Shown in pieces: positions 397 to 12,829 of a DNA stretch of 13,220 nucleotides. The position numbers and the translations under genes were made by a program. Positions within the stretch are counted from its first letter, which is position 1. Each line of letters opens with the position of its first letter. A model generated the notes under the pieces. The model was given only the letters and a program-made list of their open reading frames with translations, ran no database searches and was not told where the DNA came from. The stretch is from an uncultured bacterium (lineage in GTDB: Bacteria; Hydrogenedentota; Hydrogenedentia; Hydrogenedentales; JAEUWI01), in contig CAXBPH010000198.1 in assembly GCA_963977445.1 (NCBI GenBank), forward strand, positions 1-13,220. Direction: 5' to 3'.

Positions 397-521
397 AGGC
401 TGTGTAGCCGACCTTCGGTTGTGGGTTGTCGTCAAGGTCGTGGGGCGAATTGCGTCCCAATGCTGCTGGGACGGTGGGGGCAGGGCGTTGCGCCTGGGTG
501 AATAAACTGGCATTTAAAATA

Positions 522-700
522 AGGATCTTGGACATTCCTGTCCGAGGCAAGGAGGGCCTGCGTCTTGAAGTTCGCTTGTCGTTTTTAGTGGCCATTGCGT
601 TTCCAGTTTATGTCTTTTCGCCCACCGCGCTTGACGCAGATTTTTGGTGGCGTTTGCAGTTTTCGTGTGCTTTGCCTCGGACAGGAATGTCCAAGATCCT
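522..700. repeat. REP-doublet (REPIN-like) element: perfect 29-bp inverted repeat with a 121-bp spacer
   Basis: AGGATCTTGGACATTCCTGTCCGAGGCAA (522-550) is the exact reverse complement of TTGCCTCGGACAGGAATGTCCAAGATCCT (672-700). Each arm has an internal hairpin GGACA-N4-TGTCC. Confidence 0.8.
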
Positions 701-708
701 GTTGTTGG

Positions 709-761
709 TTGCTCCCGGCCGGGCGTGTGGGTATGATGCGGGACGAAGGAGAACTATCATG
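709..761 (+). promoter_or_regulatory. sigma70-type promoter plus RBS for the 759 gene (copy 1 of a duplicated cassette)
   Basis: TTGCTC (709-714), 17-bp spacer, TATGAT (732-737), AAGGAG (746-751), ATG at 759. The same boxes are conserved in copy 2 at 13102-13154. Confidence 0.65.
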
Positions 762-2144
762 TCTATGGGAATTTTGGGGTGTTCGTATTTAAGGTTGATG
801 GCGGCGATGGTCCTGTTGCTATCGGGCTCGCTTTTTGGGGCGGTGGCGGAGCCCATCGACGTTGGGAGTCGTCTGGAGCTCTTTGTTGACGATTACCTTA
901 TTGAAGGTATGGACAATGTGGCGTTGAAGCTCCACGAGCCCGTGCTGGCCGCGGCACCAACGGGGGATGTGGATGAATTGGAGTATGGGACGATCCTTAA
1001 AGATGGGGACGTCTATCGGCTTTACACCCGTGCGCGACACAACTCCCGGCTGGATGGCGATGAGGGAGAGTATACGCGCTATTTTGAGAGCACCGACGGG
1101 CGCGATTGGGTGGCGCCCGATCTGGGCTTGTTTACGGTGGAGGGGACGGATTGGAAGAACGTGATTCTCCATGAGCCTCCCTTGTGCCATAATTTCTCAC
1201 CCATGATCGATGCCCGACCGGGCGTGCCTGCCGAGGAACGTTTTAAGGCCCTGGGCGGTACGGGGAGCTTGGGGGGCGTGGGCTTGGTGGCTTTTGTTTC
1301 AGGGGATGGGATTCATTGGCGTAAGCTGGCACCCGAGCCCGTGATCCCGCCGACGGTGCCGTGGGAAAACGTCCACCTCTTTGACTCCCAGAATGTCGCG
1401 TTCTGGTCGGAATCGGAGGGGCGCTATGTGTGCTATTTCAGAAGCTACGACGGCCTGCGGAAGATAGCGCGGATTGAGTCGGAGGACTTCATCCATTGGA
1501 CGAACCCGAAAGAGTTGATGGTCAATTCAGAAGGGGAGCATCTTTATCCCTCCCAGACCCATCCTTATTTCCGTGCGCCCCATATTTACATCGCCATGCC
1601 GACGCGTTTCTATCCGGACCGGGGCGAATCGACGGATATCCTCTTCATGTCGACCCGGGGCGATGCCCTCTACAAGCGTCCCTTTCATGAGGCCTTCATT
1701 CGCCCTGGATTGGACCCGGCGCGGTGGGGCAACCGGTCGAATTATGCCGTGTTGAATACCGTACCCACGGGGCCTGCGGAGATGTCTATCTACACCACGC
1801 CCATGCGCCGCTTCACCTTGCGCACGGATGGATTTGTGTCGGTGCATGCGGGCGCAACGATGGGGGAGATGGTGACGAAGCCGCTGACGTTTTCCGGCAA
1901 GGAACTGGTGGTGAATTGCGCTACCAGTGGTGGCGGCAGTCTGGGTGTGGAGATTCAAGATGAAACGGGCACCGCGGTGGCTGGCTTTGGGCGAGATGAC
2001 AGCCTGCGCTTTGTGGGTGACGCCATCGAGACGGTGATAACCTGGACCGGCGGGAGCGACGTGTCCTCCTTGGCGGGTAAGGTAGTACGGCTGCGTTTTG
2101 AATTGGCCGACGCCGATCTCTACGCGATTCAGTTTCACGATTAG
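759..2144 (+). CDS. Secreted beta-propeller glycoside-hydrolase-like protein (GH32/GH43-fold-like hypothetical), 461 aa
   Basis: RBS AAGGAG precedes ATG 759. Signal-peptide-like LMAAMVLLLSGSLFGAVA is followed by IDVGSRLELFVDDYLI, repeated SxDGxxW/SxDFxxW blade motifs and a C-terminal beta-sandwich (DGFVSV...GKVVRLRFELADADLYAIQF). The ORF-track start at 426 runs through the inverted repeat and is unlikely. Confidence 0.8.
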   Translation: MSMGILGCSYLRLMAAMVLLLSGSLFGAVAEPIDVGSRLELFVDDYLIEGMDNVALKLHEPVLAAAPTGDVDELEYGTILKDGDVYRLYTRARHNSRLDGDEGEYTRYFESTDGRDWVAPDLGLFTVEGTDWKNVILHEPPLCHNFSPMIDARPGVPAEERFKALGGTGSLGGVGLVAFVSGDGIHWRKLAPEPVIPPTVPWENVHLFDSQNVAFWSESEGRYVCYFRSYDGLRKIARIESEDFIHWTNPKELMVNSEGEHLYPSQTHPYFRAPHIYIAMPTRFYPDRGESTDILFMSTRGDALYKRPFHEAFIRPGLDPARWGNRSNYAVLNTVPTGPAEMSIYTTPMRRFTLRTDGFVSVHAGATMGEMVTKPLTFSGKELVVNCATSGGGSLGVEIQDETGTAVAGFGRDDSLRFVGDAIETVITWTGGSDVSSLAGKVVRLRFELADADLYAIQFHD

Positions 2145-2200: not shown

Positions 2201-2241
2201 ACGAAAAATGAAGCGGATAGTCCGGGGACTATCCGCTTCGT
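2201..2241 (-). terminator. Intrinsic terminator of the leftward cytochrome operon (between convergent genes)
   Basis: Perfect inverted repeat GAAGCGGATAGTCC/GGACTATCCGCTTC (2210-2239), followed on the - strand by ATTTTTCGT; 35 bp past the stop at 2275. Confidence 0.8.
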
Positions 2242-2274: not shown

Positions 2275-2874
2275 TTATTTTTTCGCCTTGGTGGGGTTGG
2301 GGTGGGCGATGATGGCCTTGGCCTGTTCGAAGTCGAAGCCTACTTTGGAGCCGTCCTCCTTGGTGAACTGTTCGGTGTTCCAGGTGGGGCTTTCTTCGTT
2401 GTGGCACTTGCGACAGGTTTCTTCTTCAACCGCCATGAGGTGGGCGGTCCAGTCGATTTCGTCGGCAGTTTTCTTCTTGAACATGACATCCCGACCGTCG
2501 GCGAGGTGGTTGGAACCTGGACCATGGCAGGTCTCGCATTGGACGCTGTCTTCGGCCTTGATCTTTTTGGGGATGGATTCAGTGGCGAGGTCGTAGCCTG
2601 TCACGTGGCATTTCACGCATTCGGGTGCTTCGTGGGGAGGCACGGTAAGACCCCGTTCGGTGGCGATTTTTTTGGCCGCGTCACTTTGCAGGGCTTCGAA
2701 GGCGTGGGCGTGTTTCATATCTTTCCACACCGTCCATTGGGCCCCTTCGGGCTTTTTATTGTGACAGACCTTACATTGGTCCTGACCGATGTATTCGGCA
2801 TCCTGGGCAGGGGCAAAGCCGACGACCAAGGTCAATGTAAGGGTGGCGATGAGGTGCTTGTGTATCGTACGCAT
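2275..2874 (-). CDS. Periplasmic tetraheme cytochrome c, c554-like family, 199 aa
   Basis: GAAGGAG RBS before ATG 2874; Sec signal (MRTIHKHLIATLTLTLVVGFAPA); four CxxCH (CKVCH, CVKCH, CETCH, CRKCH); family-typical YIGxxxCxxCH, W...HAHAFEAL and VQCExCHGPGS. Confidence 0.9.
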   Translation of the reverse strand: MRTIHKHLIATLTLTLVVGFAPAQDAEYIGQDQCKVCHNKKPEGAQWTVWKDMKHAHAFEALQSDAAKKIATERGLTVPPHEAPECVKCHVTGYDLATESIPKKIKAEDSVQCETCHGPGSNHLADGRDVMFKKKTADEIDWTAHLMAVEEETCRKCHNEESPTWNTEQFTKEDGSKVGFDFEQAKAIIAHPNPTKAKK

Positions 2875-2951
2875 GGCATTCTCCTTCATGTTATCCGACG
2901 TCGCGACCATCCCGGTCACACACGAACCGTGGTTGGGCGAGTCGATTTTCG

Positions 2952-4025
2952 TTATTCATGGCAGACCCTGCAGCTGACCGAGTTGTTGGTAAGGTGCGGG
3001 GCCTTATGAGGTAGCCCGCCGGGGTGGCATTCCGCGCAATTGGCGGGATAGATGCCCAGCGCGTGGGGGGAGCGGCCCGACTTCCGGTGTTCGATGTTTT
3101 CGTGGCAAACGGTGCACGAGGTTTCCTGGGGCGGGAAGTGGCAGGAGACGCAATGCCTGTTGGCCGCGCCACTGAAGCCGGCCCGGTGGGATTGGGGCTC
3201 GGTTTTCTCGTGGCACTTTATGCAGGCGTCTTCCTCGTGACATACCGCGCAACTCTGCTGATCGATCATGGCGCGGAGTCCGTGGGGCTTCTTTCGCCAG
3301 GCCACGGTGTGGTTTTGCGGCTTTTCACGGCGGTGGCAGTCGTCACAGGAGGCAACGGTGTCGTGGCAGGTGGCGCAATACTGGGGGTCAAATTGGGCTT
3401 CATTGCCGTGGACTTTGGTCCATATTTCGGGCGAGTCGTGGGCGATTCGCGCACCCGCCCGAAACTTTGGCCGTGTCTCTGCGGTGATTTCACTGTGGCA
3501 TACGGTGCAATCGTTTGCGGCGAAGTGGGCGTTGGGTTCTCCCGATTCGAGGAGGGGGGCTTCGGCGTCGCTGTGACAATCCATACACCAGGGCATGAGG
3601 GGCCCCTTGGGTAAATCGGGGATCTCGCCCGGGGTCTTGTGGCATTCCATACAGTCAATGGATGCATCGATGTGGGGCGTGTGGCCAAAAATGGTTTCTA
3701 CGCTCATCCGCTTGATAAGGGGTGATATCGACAGGTCTTTTCGGGTGTGGCAAAACATGCAGGAGGATTTGTCTTTCGCTTCCTCGTCGATTTCGTGGCA
3801 GATGCTGCAGAGGTCATGGCCCGGCATGACGTGGCCCCCGTCTTCCCAGGCGTGGCACGTGGCACAATCGAGGGATTGCTCGATGTGGGCCTTGTGTCCC
3901 GATTTAAGGCCACGATCGGGTGTCGTCTGGCCATGGCCAAAGAACCCGCTACTGGACACGGTGGCGAGGCTGACAAAAATGACGGTTGCCAGGGCAGTCC
4001 ATTGGTATCCCGGCCTGCGGAACAT
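2952..4025 (-). CDS. 14-heme periplasmic c-type cytochrome (c3/c7-like modules), 357 aa
   Basis: AAAGGAG RBS before ATG 4025 (an alternative ATG at 4043 overlaps the porin stop); hydrophobic signal; 14 CxxCH counted; no lipobox Cys. Confidence 0.9.
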   Translation of the reverse strand: MFRRPGYQWTALATVIFVSLATVSSSGFFGHGQTTPDRGLKSGHKAHIEQSLDCATCHAWEDGGHVMPGHDLCSICHEIDEEAKDKSSCMFCHTRKDLSISPLIKRMSVETIFGHTPHIDASIDCMECHKTPGEIPDLPKGPLMPWCMDCHSDAEAPLLESGEPNAHFAANDCTVCHSEITAETRPKFRAGARIAHDSPEIWTKVHGNEAQFDPQYCATCHDTVASCDDCHRREKPQNHTVAWRKKPHGLRAMIDQQSCAVCHEEDACIKCHEKTEPQSHRAGFSGAANRHCVSCHFPPQETSCTVCHENIEHRKSGRSPHALGIYPANCAECHPGGLPHKAPHLTNNSVSCRVCHE

Positions 4026-4042
4026 GTTCACTCCTTTACGCA

Positions 4043-5770
4043 TCAGAAACGCAACCGATAGCCCATCCGAGCGCGCCAGTAGGGCGAGTCGGGACTATCG
4101 TCTTCTTCGAATGAAAATTTGCCATAAATTTCCTGGTCTTCACGGAAGGTCCACGAAAGATCGGTAAAGAGGCGGTATACATTCTCGCGGGTATCAACTA
4201 CCCGCGTGGCATTCGCCTGGGTCAGGTAGGAAAAGCCCGGATATACATTGGGCAGGAGGGCAACGACGGTCGCATCAAAGAGGGCGTAGGCTTGGTCGTA
4301 TTCCACGAGGCGGTCCTTATAGCGCACGAAGTCGACCCCGGTACGCCAGTCCACCTGTTTCCAGGATTTACTGATTTCCCCGGTAAGGGTCCAGGTGCCT
4401 TCGCCGTTCGATACATTCCAATACTCCACCGAGGTAGACAGGTCGAAGCCCTTGTAGAAATCTTCCACGTAGAGTACGGTGCCCACCCGCTGGTAGTCGC
4501 GGTTGCCCGAGTAAAAGTCGTCATTTTTCCCGTTGCGCAGTTCCCCTTCGAGGGAGAGCGTGATTTTCTTCGTGATGGGGCGGTGGAGTCCCAGATAGAG
4601 GGTCTGCTGTTCACGATATTGGCCCAGCACCTGATAGAAGGGGGAGAGATCGGCGGTGGTGTCGCCTACCGTGTTGAAGAGCTGGCGGTAATCAATGTCG
4701 TAGAGGAGGTCGAGACGGGGGATATAGCCGTTGAGACTCAGGGTAAGCTCGTCGAGGTTGCTGCCAAGCATGCCGATTCGGGCGAAGGCCCGGGTGTTGG
4801 GGCCGAAATTGTGCCAGAAGCTCAGGGTTACTTTGCTATCGTTGATTTCATCGGCGATGGGGCGGCTATACCCACGGAGGAGGCTCGTCCGACGTTTTGA
4901 GACGCCGTAACGACTTTCTTCGGCGTAGTAGGTGTCCAGGGCGATTCGGGTTTTGTTGGTGGGCACATAGGCGGCACCCCCACCGACGACCAAATCACTG
5001 CTGGTATCGCGATAGACCGATGCCCGGGCACCGGCGAAGGCATACCATTCGAATTGGTTGAGCCGCTTCTTGATATAGAGGCCATCAATGCGATTGTAGG
5101 CCGCCCCTTCCTGGATGCGCTGCCGTCCAATGCGGATGACCGAGTTGTCGCCCAACACATCATCAACATCCGCATAGAGATAGAGGAGTCGTGCCTGCAC
5201 ATCGGAGCTGGACGCGTCGTTGATGTCCCGTAGGACGCTGGATTTATTGCTATCGTCGCTCAGGTCCTGGTGGAGCCAGAGGGAGGCCCGAAGGTGCAGC
5301 CGGGGATACTTGGGTGGGTCCACATCAAGGCGGAGGTACTGGCTCACATCGAAATCGCTGTCACGGCGGGAATACACGCTATCGAATTCGGTTTCGAAGG
5401 AGCCGCGATACCAGGGCGCAGAAGGTTTAGCAGCAGGCGCTTCAGCTTCCAGTGCTTCAGGGGATTCGGCAGTGGGCTCATCGGCTCCCGCTTCGCTCGG
5501 GGCCTCAGCGGCTTCGACCGGCGTTGGTTCTTCCGTCGCTGCGGCTGCAGGGGCTTCAGCGGCGACGTCGGTCGCTTCGGAGACTATCGTTGCGTCTTGT
5601 GCGGGCGGGCTCTCCTGAGACCGGGCATCCATAGATAAGACAAATCCGGTCAGCAGCATTACGCGTGGGAGCCAGCATTGATAGCGGGCTGTTATGTTGC
5701 GCCAGGAAGCCAAGGTCGTGGAACTTTCCATCGTGGGATGTTCTCGATTGGTCATCCGCGTAAACATCAT
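4043..5770 (-). CDS. Outer-membrane beta-barrel protein, putative porin of a porin-cytochrome conduit (~575 aa; start uncertain)
   Basis: Alternating amphipathic, aromatic-rich strands; C-terminal beta-signal WRARMGYRLRF ending in Phe; RIGRQ motif; acidic Ala/Glu/Pro N-terminal linker; lies between two multiheme cytochromes with TGATG stop/start overlaps at 5770 and 4043. Confidence 0.82.
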   Translation of the reverse strand: MMFTRMTNREHPTMESSTTLASWRNITARYQCWLPRVMLLTGFVLSMDARSQESPPAQDATIVSEATDVAAEAPAAAATEEPTPVEAAEAPSEAGADEPTAESPEALEAEAPAAKPSAPWYRGSFETEFDSVYSRRDSDFDVSQYLRLDVDPPKYPRLHLRASLWLHQDLSDDSNKSSVLRDINDASSSDVQARLLYLYADVDDVLGDNSVIRIGRQRIQEGAAYNRIDGLYIKKRLNQFEWYAFAGARASVYRDTSSDLVVGGGAAYVPTNKTRIALDTYYAEESRYGVSKRRTSLLRGYSRPIADEINDSKVTLSFWHNFGPNTRAFARIGMLGSNLDELTLSLNGYIPRLDLLYDIDYRQLFNTVGDTTADLSPFYQVLGQYREQQTLYLGLHRPITKKITLSLEGELRNGKNDDFYSGNRDYQRVGTVLYVEDFYKGFDLSTSVEYWNVSNGEGTWTLTGEISKSWKQVDWRTGVDFVRYKDRLVEYDQAYALFDATVVALLPNVYPGFSYLTQANATRVVDTRENVYRLFTDLSWTFREDQEIYGKFSFEEDDSPDSPYWRARMGYRLRF

Positions 5771-6813
5771 CAAGGCCGTGCCCCGATGATTTCGTAGATA
5801 GTTTGTAATGCTTCGTTGTTTTGCAGATCACGTTCGTCGTGTATAGCACCCGAATTGGGCGTGCCCCCATCGTGACATCCGGTCACACCGGCACAGGAAT
5901 TGGGTGGCGCGGGCTCTTCCCCAAGCGCCACGGCGTCATTGGTGGCCAGGGGCGGAATCGTAAACAAGGTGTGGTCATGGGCGCGGATGGATCCATCCAT
6001 GGCCAGTTTGGGGGGGAGGTGACACCCGGTACAGCGACTCGCACCCGTACCAGTGGGGTCGACAGGGTGCATGGGACCCGTGTGGAAGTCTACGTCGTCG
6101 TCGGTCTCAAACCCGAGATTGAAACTCTGGTGACATTGAAGACAAAGGCGATTGTCCTTGGGCTCGGCCCGGAACATGCCCTTCTTGTGCATGTCGTGGC
6201 AGCTCGAACAGGTTGCCACGTTCTGGGTAGCGTGGCCGCTGAGGAAAAACTCGTCCACTTGCCCTTCATGGCATTTACCACACAAGAGCCCGTAATTCTC
6301 ATTGCTGAACCGGGAGGGTGACGAACTGCTGATGGTCATGCCGCCCATTTTGTGCACATCGTGGCAGTCGGTGCAGGTGGCGGCACCGCTAGCGAAGTGG
6401 TTGGTGGCCAGGAAACCCTGAGCGGTCCCGCCGTCGGGCGCGGTCATGTCGGCGTGACACTCCGTACAGGCGGTGTGGCGTTTATCGAAGGGGTAACGAT
6501 TGGGGTTGTCGATAAAAAGTCCGGTTCGTCCCCCTTGCTGCACGTGGGCCAGGCCCGGACCATGGCAGGATTCGCAGGAAATGGATTGATGGGGGCTCAT
6601 TCGGTATTCCTGTCGATCAGACGCACTGCGGCCGTCGTGACAGGCGAGACAGGTCGTCGTGCCTACTTCACCGGGGCCCGGGCCGGTCGACTCACAACTG
6701 TCCATGCCCAGACTCATGCCGGTGACGGCAAGAACGACCAAGTACAGCATACTTGATTGGAGGGCGGGGCGGGTGGCCCGGCTTGCGCCACATTGTCTGA
6801 TCAGAGACCCCAT
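5770..6813 (-). CDS. Multiheme c-type cytochrome, probable lipoprotein (8 CxxCH plus one CX5CH), ~347 aa
   Basis: Motifs CLACH, CESCH, CTECH, CTDCH, CGKCH, CSSCH, CLQCH, CTGCH and CAGVTGCH. Hydrophobic stretch LYLVVLAVTGMSLGMDSC ends in Cys followed by a G/P/S/T linker. GGAG lies upstream of ATG 6813 (alternative GTG start 6834). Confidence 0.88.
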   Translation of the reverse strand: MGSLIRQCGASRATRPALQSSMLYLVVLAVTGMSLGMDSCESTGPGPGEVGTTTCLACHDGRSASDRQEYRMSPHQSISCESCHGPGLAHVQQGGRTGLFIDNPNRYPFDKRHTACTECHADMTAPDGGTAQGFLATNHFASGAATCTDCHDVHKMGGMTISSSSPSRFSNENYGLLCGKCHEGQVDEFFLSGHATQNVATCSSCHDMHKKGMFRAEPKDNRLCLQCHQSFNLGFETDDDVDFHTGPMHPVDPTGTGASRCTGCHLPPKLAMDGSIRAHDHTLFTIPPLATNDAVALGEEPAPPNSCAGVTGCHDGGTPNSGAIHDERDLQNNEALQTIYEIIGARP

Positions 6814-6930
6814 GATGTGTTTTATTTCTCCCACGTCATCGTTTACCGGAATTCTTTGCGAGCGTTAGGCTACCCTGTGCCGCGTGACAGGTGGGTAAGC
6901 TGGTGGTACGAAGGCACTCGAAGATATATA

Positions 6931-6947
6931 AGCAAACATCCTGCCAA
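6931..6947 (-). promoter_or_regulatory. sigma54 (-24/-12) promoter of the leftward porin-cytochrome operon
   Basis: The - strand reads TTGGCAGGATGTTTGCT versus consensus YTGGCACG-N4-TTGCW: one mismatch, exact GG-N10-GC spacing, about 120 bp upstream of the start. Confidence 0.7.
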
Positions 6948-6980
6948 GTTATCGTGTACTAAGGAATTGGGTGTTTCCTC

Positions 6981-7009
6981 AAGGTATCACGACGTCGCGC
7001 GCCTGTCAA
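6981..7009 (-). promoter_or_regulatory. Candidate sigma70 promoter, leftward
   Basis: On the - strand: TTGACA, 17-bp spacer ending in TGA (extended -10 TGn), then TACCTT. Confidence 0.45.
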
Positions 7010-7032
7010 TTGTTGATATGGTCTGCCCCAGA

Positions 7033-7052
7033 AGTGTACTGAATTGAACACT
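7033..7052. promoter_or_regulatory. Candidate enhancer (UAS) for a sigma54 activator
   Basis: AGTGT-ACTGAATTGA-ACACT, a TGT-N10-ACA palindrome with 5-bp arms, located between the two -24/-12 promoters. Confidence 0.4.
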
Positions 7053-7267
7053 ATTGTCTTTTTTGTGTTGGGCAAATGTGTGCTAGTGTAGTTGTGTTAT
7101 GCGGGTGTTAATTGGGCTATACATATGGTTGTTTTTGTTGCCAGCCTGTCGAACTCAAGGCAGAATTCCATGAATCGGTTGTTTTTTCAGGGGTGTAGAG
7201 GAGACGTCCGTTGGATTGGGGCTGCGTTGTCTTCCTTACACACATAGGGAAGTCGGATAGGGCGTTC

Positions 7268-7284
7268 TTGGCACGGAATCCGCA
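7268..7284 (+). promoter_or_regulatory. sigma54 (-24/-12) promoter of the rightward mtrC/imcH-like operon
   Basis: TTGGCACGGAATCCGCA: perfect -24 box TTGGCACG, GG-N10-GC spacing, degenerate -12 (CCGCA); about 155 bp upstream of ATG 7440. Confidence 0.55.
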
Positions 7285-7439
7285 TGCACAGCAACAGGTC
7301 GATTGCATCTCATTATGCAGTGCCCGTTAATCAAGGGAGTAGGGCAGTCGTCATCGAGAATTGAAACGAGAGACTTGTGGAAAGGTGGTTGCGGTAACTT
7401 GAGACCGGAGCCCCGCGACATCGAAGGGAGAAGGTTGTC

Positions 7440-9521
7440 ATGACTAGGAAGAGCCAGTTCAGGTGGAGAAGCCAGATGGGGGTGAGCGTGCTGCTGATGT
7501 TCTTGATAGCATCGGCTATGTTTTCCGGTTGCCCCGTAGTTACAACGCCCGATCCAAACCCGGATCCTGATCCTACACCGACGCGGGTGGTGGTTGAGCC
7601 TGTCTCTACGTCTCCCGGATTGAACGTCGTAATAAATTCGGTGAGGATTCCAGGTGATCGACGTCCGCTGGTTTCTCTGGAGCTTCGGGACGACGCGGGT
7701 GAATTGATTCCCCTTCGTGAGCTGGGGGACGCACGCTTCATTCTCGCTTACCTCGATCCCGCACCACCGGAAGGCAGTACGGCCCGATTTGTGAGTTACA
7801 ACACGCAGACGGAGACGGCTGATGGTCGTAGCGCGCTGCAGGCAACGTACGACGGGGGACGGCTGGATGGTATGACGCAGGAGGACGACGGGACCGTAAC
7901 GTATCGTTTCACGACGGCGATTCCCGAAGGCTATCCTACGGCTGCAACCCATCAGCTTGGGGGACAGCTTGAACGTCTTTTTCCCATCGATGGTGTAGAG
8001 TATCTTGCCAATCCTGTATTTTCATTCCGGCCCGATGGTAGTGGAACACTTTTATCCCGGGAATTGGTAGAAACCGCTTCCTGCAATGTCTGTCACACCC
8101 GCCTCCAGGTCCATGGGGCACGCCGGGAAGTCCAGCTGTGTATCCTGTGCCACAATGCTGGATCAACGGATGCAAATTCTGGTAATTCAGTTGATTTCGC
8201 CCAGATGATTCACAAGATCCACCGGGGGGCCGATTTACCCAGCGTGTTGGACGGTGAGGCCTATCAGATTGTAGGATTCCGGAATTCAGTCCATGATTAT
8301 TCCGGCGTCCACTTTCCACAGCCCGTTCAGAATTGTGATTCCTGTCACTCCGGGGCATCCATGGCGGAGACCTACATGACTGCGCCGACCATCGCTGGTT
8401 GCGCCTCGTGTCACGATAGGACGTGGTTTGGTGATCCCTTTGCTGCACCCGCTGGTTTTGAAAACCACATTGCGGGTCAGCAGGTTGATGACAAGCTCTG
8501 CGCCCTGTGCCATACCCCGACGGCCCCTGGCCCTGCGCCCATCTTTGAAGCGCACCGGCTTGCTACCGAGAGTCCGTTGGCTCCGGGCCTGATGTTGACG
8601 GTAAACGAGGTGAACACGGCCAATACCGAAACGGGTGCCGCGGTGACCATAAACTTCACGGCAGCCAACAAGGATGGCGTTCCCTATGCGGACCTCAGTG
8701 ACCTGTCTACCGTTGCTGCGACCCTGGCCTACCCGGTCAGGGACTATGAGCAGGCCAACCGTGAATCCATCAACGGGGCCAACGCTACTGCCAGAGAAAA
8801 TGGTAGCTTCGATTACACCTTCAACACGGAAGTGCCTTTAGACAGTGAGGAGACCTTCGCGGTCGCAATGGACGGACGATTGAACTTTGCCTTCGGCGAC
8901 AAGACGCTTACCCAAGGTACGTCCAGTAACGGACGCATGATATTCACCGTCGACGGCAGTGTTCCCGTAGAGCGCCGCAAGATTATCGACGATGCCAAGT
9001 GCAATGCGTGTCACAGTGAAGTTCGCCTCCACGGAAACCTTCGGGTTGGTGTAGACAGCTGTGTTATGTGTCACAACCCCAGTGCCACGGATGTAAATCG
9101 TCGTCCGGAAGATCAGGGAAATCCTGAAAGTATCAATTTCAAGGATATGATTCACCAGATCCACCGTGGCTCGGCGCTGGAAACTCCGTTTTCCGTGTAC
9201 GGATTCGGTAGCACGGAACACGACTTCACTGAGATTGAATTTCCCGGTGACCTGCGGAACTGTGAGATCTGCCACGTGGATGGGTCCTTTGATATACCCC
9301 TCTCCATGGACGCCCTCTCTACGGTTGTCGCCGATGGAGAGACGGTCCTGCTCGAAAAACTACCCGTGCGGGCCTCCTGCACCTCGTGTCACGACAGTCT
9401 GATTACGGAAGTGCACGCCGTCGTGAACAGTGATTCCGGTGCTCGTGTTGAATCCTGCGCAGTCTGTCACGACAGCAGTTCGGACTTCGCTATCATCGAC
9501 GTCCACAATATGGGGCCGTGA
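7440..9521 (+). CDS. OmcA/MtrC-family decaheme c-type cytochrome, outer-surface lipoprotein, 693 aa
   Basis: Lipobox ...ASAMFSG-C; Pro/Asp tether; two heme-free beta domains each followed by a pentaheme cluster (5+5 CxxCH); family motifs R-x-(V/I)-x4-CNxCH..L..HG..R, MIH(K/Q)IHRG and FP...NCxxCH. Confidence 0.93.
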   Translation: MTRKSQFRWRSQMGVSVLLMFLIASAMFSGCPVVTTPDPNPDPDPTPTRVVVEPVSTSPGLNVVINSVRIPGDRRPLVSLELRDDAGELIPLRELGDARFILAYLDPAPPEGSTARFVSYNTQTETADGRSALQATYDGGRLDGMTQEDDGTVTYRFTTAIPEGYPTAATHQLGGQLERLFPIDGVEYLANPVFSFRPDGSGTLLSRELVETASCNVCHTRLQVHGARREVQLCILCHNAGSTDANSGNSVDFAQMIHKIHRGADLPSVLDGEAYQIVGFRNSVHDYSGVHFPQPVQNCDSCHSGASMAETYMTAPTIAGCASCHDRTWFGDPFAAPAGFENHIAGQQVDDKLCALCHTPTAPGPAPIFEAHRLATESPLAPGLMLTVNEVNTANTETGAAVTINFTAANKDGVPYADLSDLSTVAATLAYPVRDYEQANRESINGANATARENGSFDYTFNTEVPLDSEETFAVAMDGRLNFAFGDKTLTQGTSSNGRMIFTVDGSVPVERRKIIDDAKCNACHSEVRLHGNLRVGVDSCVMCHNPSATDVNRRPEDQGNPESINFKDMIHQIHRGSALETPFSVYGFGSTEHDFTEIEFPGDLRNCEICHVDGSFDIPLSMDALSTVVADGETVLLEKLPVRASCTSCHDSLITEVHAVVNSDSGARVESCAVCHDSSSDFAIIDVHNMGP

Positions 9522-9572
9522 TTTTTAGGCGACCTTACTGAAACGACAATCTGTAACAGTTGAACTAGCGAC

Positions 9573-9598
9573 GGGGAAGGTGAGGTGTCACCTTCCCC
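9573..9598 (+). terminator. Intercistronic stem-loop (partial terminator or mRNA stabiliser)
   Basis: GGGGAAGGTGA-GGTG-TCACCTTCCCC, a perfect 11-bp stem; only a weak U-tract follows. Confidence 0.55.
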
Positions 9599-9640
9599 TG
9601 ATTATGATGTAGATAAACAAACCGGGTAGGAGTCAGATTC

Positions 9641-11071
9641 GTGGTGAAAGAGGAACGTGGTTGGAGAGGTGCCTTGGGCCAACTTATCTGGCGCAATTGG
9701 CTGACACTTTTTGGCAGTAGCCTGACGACCGTGAGTGCTGGAGCGATCATCGTTTTTCTGGCCCTGGAATTTTCTGGTGTTCCCCTTTCGCCCTATATCG
9801 GTATCCTCAGCTATCTTCTGCTGCCAGCGGTGTTTATTCTCGGCTTATTGTTTATTCCGCTGGGCGCCTACCTGGATCGCCGCCATCGACGGCGGAACAA
9901 CATTACCGAAACGCCCCATATTAAACTCGATTTCAACAGCCCACGGATGCAGAAGCTGGCGGTAATCGTAGGGTTTCTGACCCTCTTCAACCTCATCATC
10001 GTTTCCATCGCCAGCTACGAAGGCGCGGTCTATATGGAGTCCGTCGCGTTCTGTGGTCAGACCTGTCACACCGTCATGGAGCCGGAGTTCATGGCCCACA
10101 TGGACTCACCCCACGCCATGGTGAAATGTGTGGACTGTCACATCGGACCCGGAATTCCGGCGCTGGTCCACGCGAAGCTGAATGGCCTGAATCAGGTTTA
10201 CGGCGTATTGACCGGGAGCTATGAACGGCCCATCCCGGCGCCGGTTCACAATCTGGCCGATGCCAATCTCACCTGCGGTGAATGCCATAACGGAAATAAA
10301 GACTTGGGTGATATTCTCAAGGTAACGACGGACTATGGTCTTGATGATGAGAATACGCCCCTTACCTCGGTGCTTCTCATGCACGTCGGTGGGGATGGGG
10401 ATGGTATTCACGGTTGGCATCTTGATCCTGACCGGGAAATTACGTATTACGCGCCCGACGACGACCGCAGTGTGGTCAGTTATGTGAACGTGAAAAATCC
10501 GGACGGTACTACGGTGGAATACTTTGCCGATGGCGCAGAGATTTCGCCAGCGACTTTGAAGCCCGACGCACTGCGCCGTATGGATTGCACCGACTGTCAC
10601 AATCGCGCTACCCACCAGTTTTCCATGCCTGGGCCCGCGCTGAATGCCGCCCTCGACGACGGACGACTCGACGTAGGGCTGCCTGCGATCAAACAGGCGG
10701 GACTGGATGCCCTGGAGCACGCGGTTGATTCGGAGGATGGGCTCCGTCTTATTTCGGATGAAATTACGGCGTTCTATACCGAAAATCATAGTGAGGTGGT
10801 CGCGGAAAAAGCAGCATCAGTTGACGCAGCCATCGCCACAATTCAGGCCATTTACCGTCGCAATATTTTTCCAAAAATGAGTATTGGCTGGGGTACTTAC
10901 CCAGACCACAATGGACACACGCAGTTCGACGGTTGCTTTCGTTGTCACGATGACGGCCACAGCAGTCGGGATGGTGAACATGTAATCAGCCAGGACTGCA
11001 CCATGTGCCACAATGTGGTGGCCTGGCAGGAAGAAAATCCCGATATCCTGGCTACGCTTGGCGTCCAATAG
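9641..11071 (+). CDS. Inner-membrane multiheme cytochrome c with NapC/NirT domain, ImcH-like putative quinol dehydrogenase, 476 aa
   Basis: AGGAG RBS before GTG 9641; three N-terminal TM helices; FCGQTCHTVMEPE and SPHAxVxCVDCHIGPG NapC/NirT motifs; six heme motifs (CGQTCH, CVDCH, CGECH, CTDCH, CFRCH, CTMCH). The architecture matches Geobacter ImcH as I recall it. Confidence 0.88.
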   Translation: MVKEERGWRGALGQLIWRNWLTLFGSSLTTVSAGAIIVFLALEFSGVPLSPYIGILSYLLLPAVFILGLLFIPLGAYLDRRHRRRNNITETPHIKLDFNSPRMQKLAVIVGFLTLFNLIIVSIASYEGAVYMESVAFCGQTCHTVMEPEFMAHMDSPHAMVKCVDCHIGPGIPALVHAKLNGLNQVYGVLTGSYERPIPAPVHNLADANLTCGECHNGNKDLGDILKVTTDYGLDDENTPLTSVLLMHVGGDGDGIHGWHLDPDREITYYAPDDDRSVVSYVNVKNPDGTTVEYFADGAEISPATLKPDALRRMDCTDCHNRATHQFSMPGPALNAALDDGRLDVGLPAIKQAGLDALEHAVDSEDGLRLISDEITAFYTENHSEVVAEKAASVDAAIATIQAIYRRNIFPKMSIGWGTYPDHNGHTQFDGCFRCHDDGHSSRDGEHVISQDCTMCHNVVAWQEENPDILATLGVQ

Positions 11072-11151
11072 GGAAATACGCCATGGCTGTCTATTTAGCC
11101 GAGGCTGCACGATTTCTTACCGGGCGCAGCGATGATGAGAAAGGGGAGGTC

Positions 11152-11787
11152 ATGAAGATTTCTGAGACCGTAATTTTAGTCGGTGCCACACTCTCGCTCA
11201 TAGGGTGTGTTACGCCACAGGCGCGGTATGAAACGATTCACGAGGCGGCAACAGAAGGGAAGGCCCGCGATGTAGCCGCTCTGGTTGATGGCGGGGTTTC
11301 CGTCAATGAGCGGGGTGAGTATGGCATGACGGCCCTGCATTGCGCCGCTGCGTGGGGTAGCGAAGACATTATGGGCTATCTGATTCGTCGTGGTGCGGAC
11401 ATCAACGCGGAGAATGATTGGGGGTTGACGCCCTTGCATATTGCTGCGGCCCGTTGCCATGACCAGGATGTGATTTTCCTGCTCGATAATGGGGCGGATG
11501 TAAACGCGCTTACCCATGCCCATTGGACAGCCCTTCACTATGCGGCTTCCCGTGGGAATCGCCTGGTCGCAGAATCGCTCATCCAGCGGGGCGCGGCGTT
11601 GGACGTGCAGACCCAGACGGGGGATACGGCCCTCCATCGCGCTGCCCGCAATGCCAGTGAGGATGTGGTCAAGGTATTGCTGGCGGCGGGAGCCGACGTG
11701 AAGATCCGTAACGAGGCGGGTGAAACACCGAAAGAAAGTGCGCTTCGGGAGGGGCAGACTGCCATTGCTTCTCTGTTTCCTGGTTGA
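11152..11787 (+). CDS. Ankyrin-repeat lipoprotein, 211 aa
   Basis: GGGGAGGT RBS before ATG 11152; lipobox LSLIG-C; five ~33-aa repeats GxTALHxAA..G....V..LL..GADVN plus a capping repeat. Confidence 0.92.
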   Translation: MKISETVILVGATLSLIGCVTPQARYETIHEAATEGKARDVAALVDGGVSVNERGEYGMTALHCAAAWGSEDIMGYLIRRGADINAENDWGLTPLHIAAARCHDQDVIFLLDNGADVNALTHAHWTALHYAASRGNRLVAESLIQRGAALDVQTQTGDTALHRAARNASEDVVKVLLAAGADVKIRNEAGETPKESALREGQTAIASLFPG

Positions 11788-11968: not shown

Positions 11969-12829
11969 TCAGTTCAGGTCGAGGGCCAACATGCGCCGGG
12001 CTTCTTCGTTTCGATAGCGGTGGCGCAGGATTTCGTAGAGCGTGCCATAGACCATCGCGGCAACGCCGCCCATTGTCACCAGGGGAAGCCACAGGTCCCG
12101 CACTGCCCCCAGAGCGATGAATGCCACGCCTGCCGCCACGGCAATAGCTCCCAAGATGGCGATGGCGAGGGTGCCCGCTAATACCACGCGTTTCCCCTGG
12201 CTCTTCGATGACAGTTTCGCGCTGATTGCGCCCCACAGGCCGCAGGAGATTCCGAATGTCAGATAGGCGACGCGGGACGATGCTGGGGCGCCTGAGGGCC
12301 CCTGGGAGGTCAGGCTCATGTTGCTCAAGGTCACGGTGCCGGGCCCTTCGAAGCGGACCCCAAGGCGGGCGGCCTCCAGGGGCTGGCCCGACTGGAGGAA
12401 GAAGGGTGTTGAAACGTCACGTCCTGGTGTGGTGCCTGTGAAGGGGGTATTTAAGGCTCGGGAAAAATAGGCCATACCGTCAATTACGGCATACATCTCC
12501 AGGTAGGCGGGCCCCGTCACCGGAGCGCTCGTCGGCGTCGCGCTGGACATGGTCGCATTGAAGGCGAGCCGGGCGTCCTCCGCACCAATTTGTCCACCGG
12601 TCACCATCACGCGGAGGGACCGATGAAAGGGATCTTCCGTGGCTGCCCCATCCGCCGCCTGGATGCGTGCAATGAGACGATCGAGACGGCTGCGCAGGGT
12701 GGGGTAGGACACGCCGTATTCGCTGGCCAAGGCCTTCAAGGATCCCGATGCCAGGACAAAGCGGCGAATGAAATGGATGTCTTCTTGTTCCAGGGCCTGA
12801 AGCCATGGTGGTAGCCTCCGATCGTCCAC
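11969..12829 (-). CDS. DUF2089-like HTH domain fused to a partial beta-sandwich and a 3-TM C-terminal region, 286 aa
   Basis: AGGAG RBS before GTG 12829; N-terminal WLQALEQEDIHFIRRFVLASGSLKALASEYGVSYPTLRSRLDRLI is the DUF2089 signature; then AYLEM...YFSR...TPFFL...EGPGTV and three hydrophobic segments. Confidence 0.8.
   Translation of the reverse strand: MDDRRLPPWLQALEQEDIHFIRRFVLASGSLKALASEYGVSYPTLRSRLDRLIARIQAADGAATEDPFHRSLRVMVTGGQIGAEDARLAFNATMSSATPTSAPVTGPAYLEMYAVIDGMAYFSRALNTPFTGTTPGRDVSTPFFLQSGQPLEAARLGVRFEGPGTVTLSNMSLTSQGPSGAPASSRVAYLTFGISCGLWGAISAKLSSKSQGKRVVLAGTLAIAILGAIAVAAGVAFIALGAVRDLWLPLVTMGGVAAMVYGTLYEILRHRYRNEEARRMLALDLN

Follow-up and report, generated by a model that had tools for sequence, protein, structure and literature searches.

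This analysis concerns a 13,220-nt stretch of DNA from an uncultured member of the Hydrogenedentota, referred to here as the window, which is one entire contig of a 7.1 Mb genome that is 94% complete. The window carries two divergent gene arms, D-C-B-A on the minus strand to the left and E-F followed by an ankyrin-repeat gene on the plus strand to the right, that encode five multiheme cytochromes and a predicted outer-membrane beta-barrel. A first-pass annotation, made from the sequence alone, had counted 42–43 heme motifs in these cytochromes and proposed a locus for extracellular electron transfer (EET) in which an MtrC-family protein and an ImcH-like protein are combined with a porin-cytochrome module other than MtrAB. 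The features of the locus, in order of position, are the following.

2210..2239, minus strand: terminator-like hairpin of 13 pairs that closes the left arm; its position and stem length are the sole arguments for it
2275..2919, minus strand: A, c554-like tetraheme cytochrome (probable start 2874); signal peptide without lipobox, likely periplasmic
2952..4043, minus strand: B, 14-heme cytochrome, predicted wire (probable start 4025)
4043..5773, minus strand: C, predicted outer-membrane beta-barrel of no named family; 22 predicted strands, plug-less, C-terminal Phe
5770..6834, minus strand: D, lipoprotein cytochrome with eight CxxCH and one CX5CH, weakly DmsE/MtrA-like (probable start 6813)
6931..6946, minus strand: sigma-54-type -24/-12 site facing the left arm; recurs in the related genomes G008, G001, G004 and G002
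7036..7051, no strand: imperfect palindrome between both promoters, candidate site for a shared regulator
7269..7284, plus strand: sigma-54-type -24/-12 site facing the right arm; recurs in G008, G001, G004 (by script) and G002 (by alignment)
7440..9521, plus strand: E, OmcA/MtrC-family decaheme lipoprotein (TIGR03507) with 5+5 hemes
9641..11071, plus strand: F, candidate ImcH-family inner-membrane quinol oxidase; three helices, CX3CH and five CxxCH
11152..11787, plus strand: G, ankyrin-repeat protein (Pfam match) with a lipobox-like start; 11152 is the probable start

Open reading frames (ORFs) for all five cytochromes and the barrel were recovered, and the heme motifs number 43, namely 41 CxxCH and two variants (A, 4; B, 14; D, 8 plus CX5CH; E, 10; F, 5 plus CX3CH), in agreement with the earlier count. 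The D and C genes overlap stop to start, as do C and B. Since five of the 17 ORFs with at least three CxxCH in the whole genome lie at this one locus, their clustering is not a matter of chance. Placement of the proteins in the periplasm or at the surface follows signal and lipobox sequences judged by eye.

By its sequence, protein E is clearly a member of the OmcA/MtrC family. It scores 419.5 bits against TIGR03507 (curated cut-off 209.3) and 184 bits against PF22113, and its closest solved relative is MtrF (3pmq_A, E 1.3e-27). The heme motifs fall into two groups of five (residues 215–354 and 521–673) and the lipobox Cys31 is invariant (17/17). Shewanella MtrC carries a redox-active cysteine pair; E, in contrast, has no extra pair, all 21 of its cysteines being used by the heme motifs (20) and the lipobox. 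Distant MtrC-family proteins from the loci described below (L072–L097) reach about 950 residues or more and have a long insertion that separates the two groups of hemes. Its neighbor F has three hydrophobic N-terminal helices, a CX3CH motif that is invariant in 17 of 17 F proteins, five CxxCH, a NapC/NirT-like segment (PF03264) and similarity to NrfH, and the positions of its helices and hemes agree, the last heme excepted, with the ImcH rows in the supplement of PMC6295460 (this and the other papers cited are represented by the parts of their text that were available). These features and the comparison of positions fit membership in the ImcH family, for which 5–9 CxxCH are described (PMC6295460).

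Protein C matched no Pfam or NCBIfam model at E 0.01, the MtrB/PioB models TIGR03509 and PF11854 included. Its predicted structure is a plug-less barrel of 22 strands (mean pLDDT 82.3, pTM 0.74), preceded by a signal and an unconserved low-complexity linker. A fold search with this model returned barrels in general, with a top Z of 19.6 tied with an usher, and MtrB (6r2q_B) stood at rank 22 (Z 15.9, rmsd 5.9, 344 aligned). Among the barrel relatives, the MtrB model matched none of 51 close sequences and, weakly, one of 14 distant ones at E 0.01, and no solved chain matched the barrel alignment (A1) at E 10. The profile search gathered 538 representatives at E 0.001; against genome contigs a single barrel sequence found no match and the alignment found 19 loci. 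One homolog bears the source label TonB-dependent receptor, an identity that we reject for C, which has no plug domain and no match to that family. Two apparent barrel-cytochrome fusions (P0253 and P0060) proved on inspection to be frameshifted assemblies and are not counted as fusions; a further relative, P0274, has a long N-terminal membrane region, by eye like a ResB-type cytochrome c biogenesis protein, that may be a fusion or an assembly error. The locus thus shows the general pattern of porin-cytochrome systems, a large plug-less barrel gene that adjoins multiheme cytochrome genes, and the pattern is conserved.

The N-terminal half of B matches ActA both by sequence (6lod_A, E 1.8e-7) and by fold (6btm_A, Z 7.0, rmsd 4.6, 136 aligned), and the C-terminal half is repeat-like and carries eight hemes. 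Fourteen His outside the motifs are invariant across 105 aligned sequences, a number that fits bis-His ligation of every one of the 14 hemes. Protein D matches MtrA (6r2q_A, E 1.6e-5), and among 30 aligned D proteins the lipobox Cys and the CX5CH motif are both kept in all. Against TIGR03508 (DmsE/MtrA), D reaches 70 bits and B 16.5, both below the cut-off of 192.2. The first-pass view that the porin is not MtrB and its partner not MtrA therefore stands in these hidden Markov model scans and in the 22 strands predicted for C. Protein A belongs with the c554 domain (PF13435, 65.6 bits against a cut-off of 20.8) and has three invariant His outside its motifs; it was rejected as an equivalog of Nitrosomonas cytochrome c554 (NF043010, 55.7 bits against a cut-off of 400).

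Conservation in Hydrogenedentota and in distant lineages

The phylum was sampled with 109 genomes at least 85% complete, and with a smaller set of 61 genomes. The barrel occurs in 52 of the 109 and MtrC above cut-off in 48, and the two travel together: 47 genomes have both, 56 have neither, five have the barrel only and one has MtrC only, which bears out the expectation that the two arms co-occur in other genomes. Both genes lie within 12 kb on one contig in 30 of the 47. With the ImcH-like gene included, 29 of the 61 genomes have all three, 27 have none and five have part of the set. MtrB scored above cut-off in none of the 109 genomes, and PF11854 in none of the 61, a zero that leans on the curated model because the control genomes for the MtrB search also stayed below cut-off. 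No canonical mtrAB that might serve the MtrC was found elsewhere in the source genome, or in the single-contig relative G008, which leaves the first-pass reading standing on this point. Far from being a single occurrence, the hybrid arrangement is found in about half of Hydrogenedentota species, and distant lineages have a form related to it.

Thirty of 31 relatives with a barrel match yielded 33 loci for comparison. In all 30 loci with sequence on that side, a B with exactly 14 hemes directly follows the barrel. D precedes the barrel in 29 of 30 (eight hemes in 16 loci, six in 13), and a larger cytochrome does so in the remaining one. That protein, in G015 (L043:2-1288), has at least 21 CxxCH, is cut by the contig end and replaces D upstream of the barrel. 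A is present in 15 of the 33 loci, and E and F in 16 each. The divergent layout is kept in ten other genomes and shuffled in seven, one of which has D, C, B, A, E and F on a single strand. Close homologs with names are labelled mostly Candidatus Hydrogenedentes/Hydrogenedentota, with some other labels such as Nitrospiraceae, and searches of plasmids with B, E and F found no match.

Beyond the phylum, a scan with 14 distant barrels found 28 metagenome loci. The 25 loci whose sequence continues downstream of the barrel all have a multiheme gene there as the next gene, which in 24 is B-like, with 13–17 hemes. An MtrC-like gene on the same strand is present in 15 of the 17 distant loci that reach past B, usually directly after B, although one of these genes is partial and weak and two of the loci look like the same organism. 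Seven of the nine full-length proteins scanned pass the TIGR03507 cut-off and two fall just short (205.7 and 188.6 bits). Barrel, B and MtrC form a single same-strand run with short gaps or overlaps; c554-like genes appear in six distant loci and, as a rule, nothing closely corresponding to D is present. Since these loci keep the barrel, B and MtrC in one run, the core of the system is barrel, wire and MtrC, with the lipoprotein cytochrome optional. On gene content, then, D and A are accessory parts around a constant core of the barrel, the 13/14-heme protein and MtrC. The tetraheme and lipoprotein cytochromes that the first-pass annotation had made links of the chain are both present here but, across the relative loci, do not belong to its core.

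As to the origin of the distant forms, 30 barrel clusters were looked up and seven bear a taxon label (Brocadiales, Planctomycetota, Omnitrophota, SAR324 or plain bacterium). The L078 barrel falls in a cluster labelled Planctomycetota, a neighbor in L091 has PSCyt2/PSD1 domains, and the three Atlas clusters shown are commonest in Planctomycetota, Nitrospirota and Myxococcota. The cluster of one barrel relative, P0217, carries the label Candidatus Brocadiales, the anammox order, and has 105 members; a porin-cytochrome has been reported for anammox bacteria, to which this relative may correspond. In four distant loci the gene immediately upstream of the barrel is ImcH-like, and in two a CbcL-like gene lies downstream, so that the inner-membrane quinol oxidase of the system appears to be exchangeable, ImcH-like in some cases and CbcL-like in others. 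CbcL-like proteins near the barrel operon, with 11–17 CxxCH fused to a cytochrome b domain, were seen at L046:7625-9592 (G032), L081 and L085.

A candidate chain for electron export

We consider it probable that the locus encodes a chain that carries electrons out of the cell, with a conduit other than MtrAB, made of the 22-stranded barrel and the 13/14-heme wire, that is predicted to feed an MtrC-family cytochrome at the surface. The contacts, topology and direction of flow in this chain are what we infer from the observed gene content, the families of E and F, their conservation and co-occurrence, and from the modeled barrel fold. ImcH and CbcL are described as EET quinol oxidases (PMC6295460), and F would likewise oxidize menaquinol at the inner membrane. 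Electrons might then cross the periplasm via A, or pass directly to the ActA-like head of B, whose thin eight-heme tail would thread the plug-less barrel C across the outer membrane. At the surface they would be taken up by E, together with D in Hydrogenedentota, and delivered to an acceptor outside the cell such as Fe(III)/Mn(IV) oxides, humics, an electrode or a partner cell. The genome has MqnC, of menaquinone synthesis, and cytochrome c assembly proteins away from the locus. The locus was called self-contained, a description that in this genome does not strictly hold for its regulation or maturation, the genes for RpoN, cytochrome c assembly and menaquinone being located elsewhere.

A number of observations weigh against the chain as drawn. 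The model of the C-terminal half of B is poor (pLDDT 41–66 over residues 191–280), and a fold search with that half gave no match, which is not evidence of a new fold because the model is weak. The genomes compared are related by descent and not independent, so no p-value is given; the MtrB zero carries the limit stated above; and MtrA/DmsE scores above cut-off in one of the 109 genomes (G015, a true match at a contig end). Two distant loci, L084 and L098, have no MtrC in the available stretch beyond B. Moreover, MtrA-like sequence is found in D and not in B, and B is a lipoprotein, by eye, in about 23 of 30 relatives and not in this genome.

These last points lead to a reading in which the barrel is occupied by D, the lipoprotein with MtrA likeness, and B acts as a bridge of the ActA or QrcA kind, either periplasmic or anchored in the inner membrane. 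The weak likeness of D to MtrA/DmsE would agree with such an arrangement, as would the ActA-like half of B and its hydrophobic N-terminus, which in this genus has no lipobox. We nevertheless regard it as unlikely, since most distant loci lack D or have another protein in its place, and among the relative loci this position ranges from six or eight hemes to 21 or more, and B is always found after the barrel, with 13–17 hemes.

A second departure from the proposed chain would treat MtrC–ImcH and barrel–wire as distinct modules that have a niche and a promoter region in common but make no contact. The two pairs are on opposite strands here, barrel and MtrC are on different contigs, some of them long, in 17 of the 47 genomes that have both, and Desulfuromonadia are reported to have MtrC-like proteins encoded outside porin operons (PMC11492766). 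However, distant lineages keep barrel, B and MtrC in one same-strand run and only one of the 48 genomes with MtrC has no barrel match, and we judge a lack of contact to be very improbable.

The direction of flow has also to be considered. The genome has three heme-copper oxidase-family genes, with an ActA-like pentaheme near one of them, and given these oxidases electrons might in principle travel inward, entering from Fe(II), reduced humics or a partner cell and ending on oxygen or nitrogen oxides, or the chain might work in both directions; Mtr-type conduits are in fact described as reversible (PMC6295460). Outward flow is favored because ImcH is tied to quinol oxidation only (PMC6295460) and MtrC analogues are reported absent from known uptake systems (10.1101/2022.03.26.485925), and an inward or two-way chain seems to us quite unlikely. 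Among organisms with known EET, ImcH homologs are described only in Fe(III) reducers (PMC6295460). In sum, the interpretation of this region as an EET locus joining MtrC, an ImcH-like protein and a non-MtrAB module is supported: its porin and partner stand apart from MtrB and MtrA, its arms recur together, and the searched genome shows no second, canonical conduit. The locus likely lets Hydrogenedentota respire by electron transfer to minerals or humics outside the cell. If that is right, it would supply a concrete extracellular-respiration machine for a phylum with almost no physiology and would explain orphan MtrC matches in sediment metagenomes. It would also provide a marker gene family that has no Pfam model, and a compact new wire for heterologous hosts.

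Regulation and genomic surroundings

The arms are separated by a gap of 600 bases with one sigma-54-type site per arm, each facing outward to its arm. No further match is present in the window, where 0.41 are expected and 15 of 200 shuffles reach two; the genome as a whole has 232 occurrences of the pattern, and both this pattern and the palindrome motif were defined after the alignment had been seen. The palindrome is perfect in G004 and near-perfect in G008 and G002. In the relative loci, sigma-54 sites precede D in 4 of 28 cases, E in 3 of 16 and F in 0 of 16; all matches are within the genus and none was found in relative loci outside it. A scan for sigma-70 promoters was at chance (5 against 4.9 expected), and the RpoN gene is present in the genome. 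Together, these sequence features suggest joint control of both arms in this genus. The terminator scan, which includes the hairpin at the end of the left arm, found 12 sites overall against 9.7 expected.

The best match to the palindrome in the genome lies about 200 bases upstream of an operon on another contig (G000:C62:23874-28374, L101) in which a tetraheme cytochrome, a 4Fe-4S protein, an NrfD-like membrane protein and an HAO-like octaheme cytochrome follow in one run. A link between the locus and this operon through the palindrome was rejected: G008, G001 and G003 have the operon and no site within one mismatch nearby. In G022 (L030) a run of tetraheme, 4Fe-4S and NrfD genes comes directly after the ImcH gene.

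The ankyrin-repeat protein G, encoded by the last ORF within the range of the first-pass annotation and not described there, is, from its distribution, a genus-restricted passenger: the gene is found at five loci of the same genus, and other genera show weak similarity at most. To the left of the locus, a 572-residue ORF (426-2144, plus strand) matches no Pfam or NCBIfam model; judged by eye it resembles a secreted glycoside hydrolase, and it is not kept beside the locus in relatives. To the right, at 11969-12829 on the minus strand, a DUF2089 helix-turn-helix domain is followed by an in-frame membrane region, which may be two genes or a fusion. Elsewhere in the same genome, G000:C25:9050-21031 (L100) holds three more multiheme ORFs (10, 4 and 5 CxxCH), none of which matches an NCBIfam model above cut-off. 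With regard to a possible export of E to the surface by type II secretion, the genome has seven secretin matches to which no system is assigned.

Comparison with described conduits

Whether the conduit is new depends mainly on its kinship to two described non-Mtr families, the Geobacter ExtB/ExtE porins and the EET3/EET4 clusters from peat, with which it is compared by description only. In the ExtEFG system as described, a barrel predicted to have 21 strands is combined with a pentaheme lipoprotein and a dodecaheme in the periplasm (PMC6148476), figures close to the 22 strands, 7–9 hemes and 13–14 hemes seen here, and like ExtABCD and OmbB-OmaB-OmcB it is an operon of a lipoprotein cytochrome, a barrel and a long periplasmic cytochrome. 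The peat preprint describes four divergent porin-cytochrome clusters with 8–13 hemes and MtrC-like models in Acidobacteriota and Verrucomicrobiota, of which EET3/EET4 (Verrucomicrobiota) resemble the present locus in their 8–13-heme and MtrC-like models and are expressed in situ (10.64898/2026.05.27.727921). It is thus possible, if a good deal less than probable, that the function is as proposed and the conduit is a remote member of one of these families. Yet none of the named distant barrel relatives is from Geobacter or Verrucomicrobiota, although only seven of the 30 clusters are named, and the Atlas clusters point to Planctomycetota, Nitrospirota and Myxococcota. The Geobacter Ext and Omb conduits are described without MtrC and differ in heme counts; the peat clusters are from other phyla, and the main text of the preprint has no mention of ImcH, CbcL or Hydrogenedent.

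Other described systems also bear comparison. Like PCC3 and PCC4, the locus is a porin-cytochrome cluster outside the Mtr and Omb groups with an inner-membrane partner, but an assignment to either was rejected on heme counts and inner-membrane protein: PCC3 has medians of 34 and 21 hemes and a five-helix cytochrome b-like partner, and PCC4 has 4, 5 and 10 hemes and no extracellular cytochrome (PMC5566968). The N-terminal half of B is like the ActA/QrcA pentaheme of alternative complex III in sequence and fold; unlike it, B adds an eight-heme tail with no solved match and adjoins an outer-membrane barrel, not an ActBC or QrcBCD complex. With Geobacter ImcH, F shares the three N-terminal helices, the CX3CH beside the membrane and the heme positions; it differs in having six hemes, not seven, and a gene that adjoins mtrC and the barrel. 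No mtrAB or mtoAB is described beside imcH, and Hydrogenedentes are not listed, in the available text of PMC6295460.

In the literature, MtrC of Desulfobacterota is described with mtrAB, sometimes in a separate operon (PMC12133095), and a screen flagged 15 Hydrogenedentota genomes as possible iron reducers, with no locus described in its available text (PMC10809760). The cluster is likewise not described in the available parts of PMC7399161, PMC11475568, PMC10732223, PMC9769843, PMC12545173 and 10.1101/855817. Searches for work joining Hydrogenedentota with mtrC found none, most subscription papers lying outside the search, and those on EET or multiheme cytochromes in Hydrogenedentota, or on MtrC-ImcH-porin clusters in Planctomycetota, returned no description of this cluster. 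A survey of mtrCAB required mtrC, mtrA and mtrB in one cluster and, in its available text, mentions neither imcH nor Hydrogenedentes (PMC8805035). MtrC is as a rule regarded as a component of MtrCAB; because surveys demand the three genes together, systems like the present one would be missed or scored on MtrC alone. We give even chances to the stronger proposition that this is an undescribed, independently built conduit, fed by ImcH or CbcL, that serves as the standard partner of MtrC in about half of Hydrogenedentota species, in Planctomycetota and in other lineages. Were it true, MtrC would be a plug-in terminal independent of MtrAB, and respiration of minerals and humics would have been overlooked in these phyla.

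A further point of reference is the Shewanella MtrCAB system, in which MtrC/MtrF/OmcA are joined by MtrA, MtrB and CymA. MtrB is a barrel of 26 strands. The two systems share a plan of barrel, wire and surface decaheme, and E resembles its Shewanella counterpart in its TIGR03507 membership, its 5+5 hemes and its lipobox. They differ in that the barrel here has 22 predicted strands and no MtrB match, the wire has 13–14 hemes and an ActA-like head, and the quinol oxidase is ImcH- or CbcL-like. The system therefore resembles a porin-cytochrome conduit in its working and is not a member of MtrCAB; it is an MtrC-family terminal on a non-MtrAB wire.

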